From a virus (taxonomy: Duplodnaviria; Caudoviricetes), in the IMG/VR virus record IMGVR_UViG_3300032038_000001, positions 32,001-96,000 of that record: 64,000 nucleotides of DNA; one strand, given 5' to 3'. The position numbers and the translations under genes were made by a program. Positions 3,108 to 39,500 of this stretch are shown in pieces (position 1 is the first letter of the stretch; the number at the start of each line of letters is the position of its first letter). Under the pieces are notes generated by a model. The model saw only the letters and a list, made by a program, of their open reading frames with translations, searched no databases and had not been told where the DNA came from.

Positions 3108-3704
3108 ATGAGAAAGCCTAAGTTTATTATCGTTATTAACGGTAAAGGTGGTGCTGGAAAAGATACATTGGTTGAAATGGCTAGAAAACATTTTTCAGTA
3201 GAAAATATTTCATCAATAGACCCAATAAAAGATGCTGCCCTTTATCTAGGATGGACTGGAGATAAAAGTAATAAATCTAGAAAATTTCTTGCAGATTTGA
3301 AAAAGCTAGTAACAGATTTTAACGATTATCCAACAGTATCTCTTATAACAAAAACTATAACATTTTTAAAAAGTAATAGTGATGTATTATTTGTTCATAT
3401 ACGTGAAGGAGAAGAGATTACTAAATATATTAATAATGTATTAAAAGTTACTAAACAAGATCAAAATAATACAGTATCTCCATATGAATATAGAATAATT
3501 ACATTATTAATACGTAGGGAATCGAAAAATAATAAAGAATACGGTAATACATCGGATGATAATGTTGAAAATTATAAATATATGTATACTTTTCATAATG
3601 ATTTACCATTGGATGAAACAGAATATGTATACCTAATGTTCTTATTAGGTATATTTAACGAAATAAAAAACAAACAACCGACAATTCCATATATTGATGA
3701 TTAA
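3108..3704 (+). CDS. P-loop (deoxy)nucleotide kinase-like protein
   Basis: N-terminal NGKGGAGKDT Walker A, DPIK and HIRE motifs. Confidence 0.65.
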   Translation: MRKPKFIIVINGKGGAGKDTLVEMARKHFSVENISSIDPIKDAALYLGWTGDKSNKSRKFLADLKKLVTDFNDYPTVSLITKTITFLKSNSDVLFVHIREGEEITKYINNVLKVTKQDQNNTVSPYEYRIITLLIRRESKNNKEYGNTSDDNVENYKYMYTFHNDLPLDETEYVYLMFLLGIFNEIKNKQPTIPYIDD

Positions 3705-17439: not shown

Positions 17440-17532
17440 AAAAAATAGGGCATGATACTTCTATATCATGCCCTATTAGATTTTATAATAAAAAATCATT
17501 TATATATAAACAAAATTATAGCAATGAATTAC

Positions 17533-17605
17533 GCGTCATTAGCTCATCTGGCAGAGCACAAAACTTTTAATTTTGGGGTACGGGGTTCGAGTCCCCGATG
17601 ACGCA
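17533..17605 (+). tRNA. tRNA-Lys(TTT)
   Basis: GCGTCAT/ATGACGC acceptor stem, CAAAA-CTTTTAA-TTTTG anticodon arm, GTTCGAG T-loop; no encoded CCA. Confidence 0.93.
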
Positions 17606-17609
17606 TTAA

Positions 17610-17695
17610 GGAGAAGTACCCAAGTGGTTGAAGGGTCTGGTCTTGAAAACCAGTAGGCTGTAACAGGTGCAAGGGTTCGAATCCCTTCTTCTCCG
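17610..17695 (+). tRNA. tRNA-Ser(TGA)
   Basis: GGAGAAG/CTTCTCC acceptor stem, CTGGT-CTTGAAA-ACCAG anticodon arm, long variable arm. Confidence 0.93.
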
Positions 17696-17747
17696 TTATT
17701 AATAATATATAAGCCGCTGTGGTGGAATAGGCAGACACAAGGGACTT

Positions 17748-18390
17748 TAAAACTAATTTATATTGGATATTTATATTTTTTTTTGAAAAGGAATGAAATA
17801 TATGAAGATAGATAATATGTATATCTATGTGAATCAGAAAGATCATAGGGTAAGAGCCTATTATAAAGATTCAAATGGTAAATTACATACTAAATCATAT
17901 CCAAGAATTTTAATGGAAAAGAAATTGGGCAGACCATTAAAGCCATATGAAGATGTTCATCATATAGATGGTAATCCTGAAAATAATTCTTTAGAAAATC
18001 TAGAGATAAAGATTCATGGCAAACATCAAAAAGAACATAATCACAAGAAATATAAACCTAAGAAACATAAATGCGATCTATGTGGTAAAAAATTCACATG
18101 GTCTGTTAATGCTCAAAGGTTTCATGCTAGGTGGTTAAGAAAAGGTATTAAAAACCTATTCTTTGTTCCAAGCATTGTATTGGTACATATGGTAAACAAG
18201 AGCAGATTAGAAGGAATTCTAATGCTGAATGACAGCTAAACGGTGAAGCCTTTCCCAATGGTAACGCCGTGCCAAATACTTTTTAAAGTATGTGCGTAGA
18301 GACTTTACGCTGTCTATCCAGAACGGATAAAGACAAAGTCCAGACCACAAACATAAGTTTTTTTATGGCAGTGAAAACTGTAGTGGTAAG
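17748..18390 (+). mobile_element. group I intron in tRNA-Leu anticodon
   Basis: Follows U and ends in G; P3 GACAGC/GCTGTC, P7 GACTTT/AAAGTC, R-like GTAGAGACT, S-like AAGACAAAGTCC. Confidence 0.9.
17793..18239 (+). CDS. intron-encoded HNH homing endonuclease, apparently frameshifted near 18150
   Basis: MEKKLGRPL...VHHIDGNPENNSLENL...H HNH motif; CDLC zinc half-site, with CSKHC in the -1 frame. Confidence 0.85.
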   Translation: MKYMKIDNMYIYVNQKDHRVRAYYKDSNGKLHTKSYPRILMEKKLGRPLKPYEDVHHIDGNPENNSLENLEIKIHGKHQKEHNHKKYKPKKHKCDLCGKKFTWSVNAQRFHARWLRKGIKNLFFVPSIVLVHMVNKSRLEGILMLNDS

Positions 18391-18487
18391 AAAATCCCTC
18401 GGTAGCAATATCGTACGAGTTCAAGTCTCGTCAGCGGCATTATCAAAATAAAAAAATATTTTTTTTATTTTGTATAAACATTATATT

Positions 18488-18858
18488 AATGGGAATAAAA
18501 AAATCCCATGAAGATAACACTGTGGGTGAGAGAGCTAATAAAGCACAATGCAGCTTATCAGAATTTAGAATTGCAGCAACGGGTGCGTGAAGCTCAACAA
18601 CAAAAATCCATCTGCAGTAGAGCCGCATACCATGCGGTAATTTATCAAATAGGCGGCAGCCGACCTTGTAGATAAGGTATACGCACTGAGTATAAAATCG
18701 ATGTACAGAGAAGTTGAAAAGGTCATATAAACAGATAACGTACGAATCGGTTGGACTCTGAGTAAATGTATGCGTTGATCTCGTGCGATAAATAACGCCG
18801 CCTTTAAAAAATAATTTATTTTATATAAATGAGTGAGTGGTTATTAACCACTCACTCA
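18488..18858 (+). ncRNA. candidate structured ncRNA A
   Basis: Lies between AACA-N6-TA (18477-18488) and terminator hairpin (18830-18858); GC-rich relative to flanks; AGGCGGC/GCCGCCT long-range stem. Confidence 0.5.
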
Positions 18859-36368: not shown

Positions 36369-36510
36369 TATAAAAATAAAAGATGGATGATTTATAAATC
36401 ATCCATCTTTTATTTTTTTATATTTTTTACCACACATCAATAAAATGTTGATTTGGTTATATATTATTTTTTTGCATAAATTGATTAAACATGAAAGGAA
36501 GATAAAAATT

Positions 36511-39500
36511 ATGCCAGAAGTACAAAAGTATTCATTAACAGACGAATTACAGAAAGCAAACGAAAAGTATCAGGGATCTGCGGCATTACTTGGTATGTCG
36601 GTTTTAACAACTCCCGGATATATAAATTCGATGCGTTCAGTAATGTTTACTGCTCACCTTAAGCAGTTCTTGAATCTTCAGAATCCTGAGTTTCCTTTTG
36701 TTTTCACCAATGCTGAAAATGTTGTAGGAAGACATAGTTCTGGATATAAGAAAGCAAAAAATAAGTTGAAAGTGTACAGAAAGGTAGCCAAATACGATGA
36801 GATATTGGATACACCCAATATCTATAAGCTGTTTGTATTCGATACTGAAAAGAAGTGTTATGATGTTATTACACGTAAATCTGTTGAAGATTTAACAGAA
36901 CATTTCGGTTTTGAATACAACAACGATGTTATTGACTCGTTTGACGAGGGTGATACAATTAATAAAGGCACAGTACTTTATAAGTCAACATCGTATGATG
37001 AAGACATGAACTATGCATATGGTAAGAATGTTACTATGATGTATACTCTTGACCCTTACACATCAGAAGATGCTGCTGTTGTAAGTAGAAGTCTTGCTGA
37101 ATCAATGACATCTATTGAAACAGAAGTAATCAGTATCGGTCTTAATGATAATGATTACTTTGTTAATTTACAAGGAGAAAAATATTCTCTTATTCCCGGA
37201 AAGAAAGGAAAGTATAAACCTCTTCCTGATATAGGAGAAGTTGTTAGTGGTCATCTTGCCGCAATAAGACGTCAGTTTAATAATCAGCTGTTATTCGATT
37301 TTAATGCTGACAGTCTTAATCAGATTCATGAGGGTGACCTTGTTTATTATATTGGTAATGGTAATGAAGTAATTGACTATACAATATATAATAACAATGA
37401 GAATATTGTTGATAATGCTTTTACAGAGCAGATTAATAAATATCTCAACGGACAGAATAAGTATTATCAGGAAATTCTTGAAGCATGTGAAGAGATAATA
37501 AAATCGGGATTTGAATATAGTCGTGAAATAGATTATCTCTATAAACGTGCAAAAGATATGCTTGATAGTAAGAAAAAGTGGCGAGAAGGCGAGAATGCGT
37601 TTTCTAACATGGTAATCGAAATACAAGTTAAGAAAGTTGTTCCTCTTGCTAAAGGGCAGAAAATAACCGGTCGTTATGGAAACAAATCAGTTATTTCGGA
37701 AATACGAGAAGATGAAGATATGCCGTTTACTGAAGATGGTAGACGAGTTGATTTACTTCTCAATTTGTTAGCGTTGATAAATCGTACAACATCATTTCCA
37801 ATGTACGAAATCATATCAACATCTATTGCATACAAGGTACGTAATAGAATGAAGGAGTTAACCACTTATAATGAAAAAGAAGAACTTCTTTTTGATTTCA
37901 TCAAACAGTACAATGAAGTTGAATATGAAAGGATGTGGAAACTTTATTGTGATATGAGTGCTGATGAAAAGAAAGATTTTATAGATGATGCTATAGAAAC
38001 TGGAATTTATCTTCATCAGCCACCTCTGTGGGAAACAAAACCTATTTTCCATAGAATACAAGGTATACTTCAAAAGTATGATTGGCTTAAACCAGATAAT
38101 GTCTATATCAATAAATGGGGTCGTAAGATGAAGATTCTTAATAATTATTGGATAGGCGATATGTATGTTCTTAAACTCAAGCAGACTGATAGAAAAGGAT
38201 TTATAGTACGAAGCACTGGTGCAATAGATACCAAAGGTCTTCCTACTAAAAGTTATAAGTCAAGATCACACCTTGAGCAGTATTCCGGTAACGCGATCCG
38301 CTTTAACTACACCAGAGCGGAAATACTAGTAATAGTATTTAGTAAAACTCTTTTAATTGCTGGGAAATCTCTCTGAGACAATCAGCAGCGAAGTTAAAAT
38401 ACTCTAAAAACTCTTTTATTATTTAAATAATATAACAGAATTATAAAAATATAATAATGGAGTTGATTATATATGACGGATATTAATTTAGATGAAAATC
38501 GAAATTATAATGAAGAGATATGGCACAAAATAATATATGATGATTTAAAAGGGAACTATTCAGTTAGTAATATGGGTAGAGTTAGAAATGACACTACTGA
38601 AAAGGTTTTAAAACCATGGGTTACTAATAAAGGATATTTAGCTATATACTTACCAGCAAAGAAAAACACTGGAAAAAAAGTATGTAGATTTACTATTCAT
38701 TGGTTGGTCTTAGCTATGTTTACTGATGAACATGAAAAAATATACGATTCTAGATGGATAGTAAATCATAAAGATGGTATTAAACACCATAGCTATTTAT
38801 CAAATTTAGAATGGGTCACTTATAGTGGAAATTATAATCATGCAATTGAAAACGGACTATGTAATAATTATGGAGATGAAACAAAAAATTCATCACATAC
38901 TTCAGAAGAAGTAAGAAAAATTGCAGAATTATTAGTTCTTGATAAATCATACCAAGAAATTATTGAAATTATGGGATATGAAAATAATTTTAATACACGA
39001 AATTTTCTCAGTAGTATTGGAACAAGAACTAAGTGGAAGAATATAACAAAAGATTATAATTTTAAAACACATACGAAATCAACTATATATAAATATTCCG
39101 AAAAAACTATTCATAAAATATGCAAATGTATAGAAGACGGTTATAGGAATTATGAAATAATTAATGAGCTTCATATAACAGATAAAAAAGAAGCTAAAAA
39201 ATATTTATCTCTCATTTATAGAATTAAAAAGCATACAGCTTTTAAAGAAATATCTAAAAAATATAATATGTGAGTATTTTAAAACGTTCAACGACTATCG
39301 AAAGGGTAGTTATAAGAGAAATCTTATAATGAGTAACTGAGTAGAGTAGTGCCTTTATAGGTTAGTATTATAGTGAGATTAGCTGTAAGTAAATCTATTA
39401 AAACGAAACGGAGAGCTCCTGTATTATGGTAACAATAATATGGGATGATGATATAGTCTAATCTTTATAGCGATATAAAGTAGTAGTAAAAAATGTGGTG

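Follow-up and report, generated by a model that had tools for sequence, protein, structure and literature searches.

Can the group I intron known from bacterial tRNA-Leu genes reside in a phage genome, and does it move there? This question is raised by a 64,000-nucleotide stretch of viral DNA (the window), which comprises bases 32001-96000 of a 250,395-bp phage record in IMG/VR, a genome rated complete by CheckV. On the plus strand of the window, a tRNA-Leu(UAA) gene (17713-18439) is interrupted by an insert of 643 nt. Judged by its sequence, the locus is very likely a functional gene for tRNA-Leu(UAA), split by a group I intron that splices itself and is of subgroup IC3, the 'Leu.3Ug' type; the intron itself is real, and it is probably self-splicing. 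All phage introns known in 2014 were located in protein-coding genes, despite the many phage tRNA genes (Hausner et al. 2014, PMC3984707). Introns in phage tRNA genes were later described as previously unreported and 'enigmatic' (Devoto et al. 2019, PMC6784885). A survey of bacterial genomes, in which phages were not treated, counted 5,292 group I introns within genes for tRNAs and defined the Leu.3Ug type (Williams 2020). No description of a group I intron in a phage tRNA gene was found in the open-access literature.

The interrupted gene encodes a tRNA of ordinary form. ARAGORN reads the joined exons as an 84-nt tRNA-Leu(UAA), whose cloverleaf is normal and whose variable arm is long; when introns are allowed, the program reports tRNA-Leu(taa) over 17713-18439. 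The initial annotation had placed a 643-nt insert between U and A of the anticodon, at the classical position of the tRNA-Leu(UAA) intron. Both statements hold. The spliced exons form a clean tRNA, and the insertion point lies between U34 and A35, with CUU before the insert, G as its last base and AAAA after it. The 35-nt 5' exon is identical to that of uninterrupted phage tRNA-Leu genes (loci L082, L063, and L043).

Standard searches overlook this locus. Default ARAGORN and Rfam at the gathering threshold return only Lys, Ser, and Gln tRNAs and report neither the split gene nor the intron; likewise, a search of the whole phage genome with RF00028 lists two other sites, and the tRNA-Leu intron is absent from the list. 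A permissive Rfam scan recovers Intron_gpI (RF00028) at 18140-18363 over the whole model (1-253), with 49.7 bits and an E value of 1.6e-11. The curated gathering cut-off of RF00028 is 50 bits; 18-20 bits were used for the discovery of group I introns within genes for tRNAs (Williams 2020).

The insert was initially said to contain a complete group I core, and this is confirmed by helices P1 to P9, the P7 pseudoknot, and covariation. In P1, bases 17745-17748 pair with A-G-A-G at 18199-18202, and U17747.G18200 forms the wobble pair at the 5' splice site. In the alignment of ten phage introns (A1), the guide GAG is (nearly) invariant and the final column is an invariant G, the terminal G before the 3' splice site; this G and the U.G wobble are kept in all relatives. 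An unconstrained minimum free energy (MFE) fold of 18197-18392 returns P2-P6, P8, and P9 (z = -3.95), while P7, being a pseudoknot, cannot show in such a fold. The core is assigned the compact IC3 layout because it lacks P5abc and P7.1/7.2; P5 forms a simple hairpin, and only five nucleotides (18305-18309) lie between the P7 5' strand and P3'.

Covariation supports the same fold. In a MAFFT alignment of the ten phage introns, P7 included, 92.1% of the cells are paired, compared with 33-36% when the partners are slid. Changes on both sides occur at 30 of the 44 pairs, which none of 500 shuffles reached, and all ten pairs of P2 show such changes among relatives. P7, which was unused in any fitting, is 100% paired, with C-G replaced by A-U in three of the ten sequences. 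As a separate observation, the periphery of the intron is variable between strains and the paired core helices P2-P8 are without differences; strains from sequencing runs X16 and X18 have 9-10-nt duplications (ACAAACATAA-type) at window 18346-18358, in the peripheral hairpin between P9 and P9a.

Homologous introns were gathered by pattern scans of IMG/VR, followed by nhmmer. Related introns interrupt tRNA-Leu(UAA) at L165 (on the same contig as L121), L150, L196, L197, L176, and L191a, tRNA-Lys(UUU) at L174, tRNA-Ser(UGA) at L144, and a CAU tRNA at L191b; all of these were confirmed by in-silico splicing. The Leu, Lys, and Ser members have the guide GAG and a splice site after C32-U33-U34, and L191b has the guide GGG and a site after U33. 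A weaker match (L171, 68.7 bits with the model R1 described below) lies in a tRNA-Ile(UAU) read by ARAGORN, its splice site being unconfirmed. The phage intron family is sizeable, and the window intron is not a one-off. At L191 (3385-4353, minus strand), two intron-split tRNAs lie less than 1 kb apart with an uninterrupted tRNA-Ile(UAU) between them; the introns measure 176 nt in the tRNA-Leu(UAA) and 201 nt after U33 in the CAU tRNA.

A covariance model, R1, was built from the ten phage intron sequences only. Phage members of the family score 118-195 bits; because of these mutual scores, the phage introns are recognised as a lineage of their own. The window intron is the second-best match to the model (190.1 bits) and the sole one in its genome. 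Among 120 bacterial loci collected with a loose pattern, which yielded chiefly chance matches, real tRNA-Leu introns are present at six. These six are matched full-length by R1, all in tRNA-Leu(UAA) genes and all inserted after CUU with a final G before AAAA. A Nostocaceae cyanobacterium (L245) scores 72.8 bits and L312 scores 80.9 bits, while the proteobacterial introns of Dokdonella, Lysobacterales, Cupriavidus, and L296 score 74-87 bits. Because a model made from phage sequences alone matches the classical cyanobacterial and proteobacterial tRNA-Leu introns over their full length, the window element is identified, on sequence grounds, as an IC3 'Leu.3Ug' tRNA-Leu intron in a phage; the subgroup, which the initial annotation had left to be checked, follows from this homology and the compact core. 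When the bacterial members are added, 94.1% of the cells are paired and 33 of 40 pairs covary, in an alignment that was fitted to the model and therefore leans towards the structure. In a tree, the HNH-bearing phage introns group together with 88/66 support; little else is resolved, too little to indicate a donor or a direction of transfer.

A blastn search of 17500-18500 against 50,697 cultured or deposited phage records found no intron-length relative, only tRNA matches and one 66-base intron match (query 826-891, 81.8% identity, E 4e-6) in Kolpuevirus 'frurule' of Bacteroides cellulosilyticus. Viral contigs gave no match to an exact 22-mer taken from the core. The 18-mer ATCCAGAACGGATRAAGA from P8 and J8/7 was found at 73 loci, mostly cyanophage psbA-type introns. 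These were considered as family members and set aside; they score 20-70 bits with R1, are not in tRNA genes, and contain extra sequence between the P7 5' strand and P3' as well as extra helices. At L138 (10363-11176) and many other loci, the psbA-type genes of cyanophages carry two or three tandem group I introns that share ATCCAGAACGGATRAAGA. Inserts of another kind are present in the tRNA genes of L121, a 218-kb relative. In a tRNA-Thr(UGU)-like gene at 966-1103, which matches the Rfam tRNA model with 45.3 bits over 135 nt, the insert measures about 59 nt; at 3247-3376, ARAGORN reads a tRNA-Lys with a 55-nt insert. Both inserts are too short for group I introns and are reminiscent of the 'enigmatic' tRNA introns of Lak phages.

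Table 1. Features of the split tRNA-Leu(UAA) gene, its intron, and the adjoining tRNA genes (window coordinates).
Feature	Position	Strand	Evidence
tRNA-Leu(UAA) 5' exon, positions 1-34, ending C32-U33-U34	17713..17747	+	ARAGORN, spliced exons and intron option
Group I intron, 643 nt, IC3 'Leu.3Ug' type	17748..18390	+	Rfam RF00028 49.7 bits; model R1 190.1 bits; covariation
tRNA-Leu(UAA) 3' exon, A35 onwards	18391..18439	+	ARAGORN
P1 5' strand, C-U-U then U; 5' splice site after U17747	17745..17748	+	Read from sequence
Internal guide sequence (P1 3' strand)	18199..18202	+	Read from sequence; GAG conserved in alignment
P2 hairpin, GGAA tetraloop 18213-18216	18203..18227	+	Covariation; MFE fold
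P3 (18231-35/18310-14), enclosing P4, P5, P6, and P7 5' strand	18231..18314	+	Covariation; MFE fold
P4	18240-45/18265-70	+	Covariation; MFE fold
P5	18248-50/18260-62	+	Covariation; MFE fold
P6	18271-72/18294-95 plus inner stem	+	Covariation; MFE fold
P7 pseudoknot, spanning P3' and P8	18301-04/18337-40	+	Covariation
P8	18315-19/18325-29	+	Covariation, 4/5 pairs with double changes
P9 (18344-48/18383-87), inner hairpins, terminal G18390	18344..18390	+	Covariation; MFE fold
P9a, GAAA loop	18369-72/18377-80	+	Covariation; MFE fold
Shine-Dalgarno-like AAGGA, 9 nt 5' of ATG 17802	17788..17792	+	Read from sequence
HNH gene, N-terminal part, frame 0; contains a beta-sheet region for DNA binding, the H-N-H motif, and the first CxxC	17802..18154	+	Pfam, PHROG, alignment
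A5 run, where loss of one nucleotide shifts the HNH reading frame	18150..18154	+	Comparison with X2, X16, X18, and X4 contigs
HNH gene, C-terminal part, -1 frame: second Cys pair, QEQ..R tail, TGA 18230-18232	18155..18232	+	Three-frame translation; alignment
tRNA-Lys(UUU) and tRNA-Ser(UGA), same cluster, upstream	17533..17695	+	ARAGORN, Rfam tRNA

The second part of the question, mobility, turns on the open reading frame (ORF) that fills the 450-nt loop of P1. It belongs to the HNH endonucleases (Pfam HNH_3, 30.1 bits against a cut-off of 24.8; PHROG 14913, E 1.2e-16), and it aligns with intact proteins of 150-188 residues encoded at the same position in L121, L197, L320, and L326. Purine-rich sites at the same distance from the start as the window's Shine-Dalgarno-like sequence are present in L165 and L197. 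The family comprises 160 clusters at E <= 1e-5, nearly all unnamed. Its invariant residues are H56, H57, D59, N64, N65, N69, H78, H82, C94, C97, C125, and C129; the HH-D-NN-N-H-H series, which the window has as well, does not vary among 32 homologues. The AlphaFold model built for the intact form has a pLDDT of 90.4. Its best match in the PDB is I-HmuI (1u3e; rmsd 3.3 over 79 residues, span 4-84), with a Z score of 7.7 that lies below 8, in the zone of common arrangements; the second is I-PpoI (Z 6.1). A Foldseek search of the model against the PDB gave nothing significant (E 0.29), and a sequence search of solved structures gave only a weak zinc-finger match, ZBTB24.

The ORF runs into the ribozyme, since the guide sequence, P2, and J2/3 code for its tail (...QEQ..R..AE); in some relatives the HNH frame reads on through P3-P5. 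This amounts to dual coding at 18199-18245 and at homologous loci, where QEQ..R..AE(C).LNGE is read from the guide sequence, P2, P3, and P4, and this peptide may have been conserved as much by constraints on the RNA as by those on the protein. Of 120 homologues, 52 have the AE(C).LNG peptide, co-encoded with P3-P4, although it is a weak proxy for residence in tRNA-Leu introns.

Among relatives, this gene is found at different stages of decay. A degenerate pattern for the clade retrieved 12 viral contigs, mostly of 210-252 kb. The nuclease is intact in L165, L197, L320, L324, and L326 and truncated in L323, L325, and L321. Remnant introns of 292-335 nt are found in L196, where ORF fragments are still recognisable, L319, and L322; L176 (198 nt) and L191a (176 nt) are ORF-less. 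One intron clade sits in clearly different tRNA-Leu backbones. Moreover, an intron of 621-622 nt is present in L320, L324, and L325 exactly where L063, L082, and L043 are continuous, in phage DNA that is about 95% identical and with flanks 93-100% identical between the two alleles. These intron-plus and intron-minus alleles bear out the proposal that the intron belongs to a mobile lineage, which, to judge from the sequences, would have been mobile recently and whose nuclease appears to be decaying in the window strain. An attempt to trace the gain of the intron in the window phage's own lineage by synteny was uninformative, as the sole relative found by its family B DNA polymerase (PolB), L318 at 67% identity, is without the downstream tRNA cluster.

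The HNH gene in the P1 loop, which has a ribosome-binding site of its own, would encode a homing endonuclease similar to I-HmuI. In a co-infection, an intact enzyme would nick or cut the uninterrupted tRNA-Leu(UAA) genes of the other phages, and the intron would spread when these are repaired from the copy that bears it. At least 118 viral contigs contain a 23-mer that spans the uninterrupted junction, and the sheep sample with the intron-bearing phage also contains uninterrupted, near-identical tRNA-Leu genes. Since the target sequence is so widespread, it is plausible that the nuclease may cut the tRNA-Leu genes of hosts or rival phages, as was suggested at the outset. It is possible, if rather doubtful, that nuclease and intron form a pair of weapon and shield. 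The enzyme would cut every uninterrupted tRNA-Leu(UAA) gene of hosts and co-infecting phages because they have a common anticodon arm (...GGGACUU followed directly by AAAAUCCC...), while the intron, by splitting the site, would protect the phage's own copy. All tRNAs with C32-U33-U34 (Leu UAA, Lys UUU, Ser UGA) would also be open to the family, since its guide GAG needs only CUU.

In the window itself, the nuclease gene is interrupted by a frameshift. Contigs from a sheep-gut DNA run (X2, a 27-kb contig over the locus) and from two cattle RNA libraries (X16 and X18) have A6, one A more, where the window has A5. With A6 and the substitutions of the sister strains, the reading frame stays open over 143 codons, and its product is identical to database protein P0089 (a cluster of 17 member sequences). 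In the window, frame 0 continues past the A-run to TAA at 18237-18239, and C125 and C129 fall out of frame. As this deletion of a single nucleotide costs the protein the final pair of its four invariant cysteines, the nuclease is most probably inactive, with the intron remaining as a passenger. For the same reason, the window copy is probably not homing-competent on its own. The initial annotation of an HNH ORF in the 5' loop that runs into the ribozyme therefore stands as to location, overlap, and family (the Pfam match), but not as to an open frame, since the C-terminus lies in the -1 frame. Similarly, its description as a mobile, homing version fits the alleles of relatives but not the broken nuclease gene of this genome.

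Could the nuclease still be made in the window strain, leaving the element fully homing-competent? Homopolymers are prone to error, and A5 might come from sequencing or assembly; alternatively, polymerase slippage or a -1 shift on U-AAA-AAC (18149-18155) might correct the frame. This heptamer resembles an X-XXY-YYZ slippery site, and a -1 shift at exactly the A-run restores the conserved C-terminus of the nuclease. However, A5 is also found in the contig of an independent RNA-library run (X4, >99% identical), against A6 in three runs, which looks like a true strain polymorphism. The heptamer begins with U rather than A, and no stimulatory structure was seen near it, although none was sought. 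Intact nucleases of relatives need no frameshift, and the truncated and remnant ORFs show that decay of the nuclease is common in the clade. Continued production of the enzyme is therefore considered unlikely, and a recently broken gene is preferred.

How would the tRNA be made from such a gene? The tRNA cluster (Lys, Ser, Leu) would be transcribed and the intron would then fold, its guide GAG (18200-18202) pairing with C32-U33-U34 to form P1 with the U.G wobble at the splice site, and pairing in the anticodon stem would keep the two exons together. An external guanosine would attack after U17747, and the freed 5' exon would attack after the terminal G18390, giving a mature tRNA-Leu(UAA) that would read UUA, the commonest Leu codon of the phage. 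No spliced junction was seen in the contigs of the sequencing runs; the runs were kept as contigs, in which rare spliced RNA cannot appear, and the result speaks neither for nor against splicing. A single 'joint' in DNA run X2 was considered as a splice junction and rejected, as it contains 22 foreign letters and belongs to another organism's tRNA. A 675-nt contig from the oligo-dT RNA library X16 covers window 17777-18440; it contains the unspliced intron and ends one base past the 3' end of the tRNA. This end hints weakly at a precursor that was processed at its 3' end but left unspliced; chance may also account for it.

Several points weigh against a functional, self-splicing, and mobile intron. 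P1 has only four base pairs, the Rfam score falls 0.3 bit short of the curated cut-off, and the RNA-library contigs over the locus are unspliced, for which precursor RNA or carried-over DNA may account. The presence and absence alleles belong to relatives and not to the window phage's own lineage, the nuclease gene of the window genome is broken, and the structural likeness of its product to I-HmuI remains in the range of common arrangements.

It is conceivable that the ribozyme of the window copy is inactive, the locus being a dead tRNA pseudogene with a selfish insert, or that it depends fully on a protein cofactor. Splicing is here a prediction from the sequence, and the short P1 and the marginal Rfam score would fit such a case. 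On the other hand, all core helices are intact in what is the second-best match to the family model, and P1 is equally short in classical tRNA-Leu introns (L245 and L312). A sheep-gut contig that differs from the window by 14 bases and 4 gaps over 1,301 bases retains the whole intron, and the tRNA is the phage's sole one for its commonest Leu codon. Inactivity is thus judged very unlikely. Removal of the insert by proteins, in the manner of the tRNA-shaped or 'enigmatic' phage tRNA introns or of archaeal bulge-helix-bulge introns, is scarcely credible, for although non-group-I inserts exist in the phage tRNAs of Lak phages (PMC6784885), this insert contains a full group I core that covaries and shares homology with the self-splicing introns of tRNA-Leu, and with U before it and G at its end, no tRNA-like or bulge-helix-bulge shape is needed as an explanation.

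The self-splicing intron favoured here can be compared with several known systems. The classical cyanobacterial and proteobacterial tRNA-Leu introns share with it the insertion site (CUU before, final G, AAAA after), a CUU/GAG P1, a compact P2-P9, and GNRA-type loops on P2 and P9. They reside in a cell or plastid, whereas this intron is in a jumbo phage. They are also usually ORF-less (220-266 nt in the six bacterial examples), whereas here the P1 loop is enlarged by 450 nt with an HNH gene. Like the intron of the SPO1 DNA polymerase gene, which encodes I-HmuI, and that of I-PfoP3I (PMC3428280), the window element is a phage group I intron that encodes an HNH endonuclease. Those introns are found in protein-coding genes and are not IC3, whereas this one is IC3 and lies in a tRNA gene; the position of its ORF in L1, overlapping the guide sequence, P2, and P3, also sets it apart from SPO1-type introns. 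The C-terminal half of the nuclease has a four-Cys knuckle and a long helix in place of the DNA-binding tail of I-HmuI.

A group I intron in a tRNA anticodon loop with its own homing endonuclease, I-Ssp6803I, is known from the tRNA-fMet of Synechocystis (Bonocora and Shub 2001, listed in PMC3984707). That intron differs in its tRNA and its loop position and is cellular rather than viral; its nuclease is likewise aimed at the anticodon region of a tRNA gene. I-Ssp6803I belongs to another family and is not an HNH enzyme. T4 SegB (PMC13096335) is also a selfish nuclease that biases the inheritance of a phage tRNA region in co-infection, but it is free-standing in the tRNA cluster, without an intron, and the tRNA genes are uninterrupted. 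Finally, the Lak megaphages have introns in tRNA genes of large gut phages (Devoto et al. 2019, PMC6784885); these are unclassified, one perhaps encoding a tRNA, whereas the ribozyme in the window can be assigned to group I and is accompanied by the gene of a homing endonuclease.

The carrier is an uncultured jumbo phage of the ruminant gut, with a G+C content of 31%. Near-identical DNA is present in cattle and sheep gut metagenomes from 13 studies, in agreement with the earlier view that the setting is not cyanobacterial. It is reasonable to regard it as a phage of a gut anaerobe, and a cyanobacterial host would not be a reasonable assumption. Neighbouring genes include those for a divergent DNA polymerase of family B, a head-tail joining protein, and an NAD-dependent ligase. 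Four tRNA genes are present in the genome, for Lys(UUU), Ser(UGA), Leu(UAA), and Gln(UUG), each of which reads the commonest phage codon for its amino acid. UUA makes up 37% of the Leu codons, and no Leu tRNA other than tRNA-Leu(UAA) was found in the genome. A further likely group I intron is situated in the window at 36445-39480 (plus strand). There, a gene fragment of RNA polymerase beta type with Rpb2 domain 6 (36445-38376) is followed downstream by an ORF with a NUMOD4 motif (38473-39273) and a partial Intron_gpI match (39346-39480, 35.1 bits), which suggests that the RNA polymerase gene is split by an intron. A third Intron_gpI match of the phage genome lies beyond the window (L001, G000:C1:171501-171912, minus strand, 46.1 bits).

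The locus reveals no new mechanism, as the ribozyme, the nuclease family, and the logic of homing are all known. It is a well-preserved, phage-borne, endonuclease-carrying variant of a known intron, in which the nuclease is freshly broken. Phage tRNA repertoires are undercounted because standard tRNA finders miss genes split by introns. The IC3 intron of tRNA-Leu(UAA), the oldest known type of bacterial intron, circulates in jumbo phages, and the phage-borne nuclease is caught there at every stage from intact gene to lost gene. Carriage by jumbo phages is a natural route by which tRNA introns could pass between bacterial lineages and between tRNA isoacceptors.

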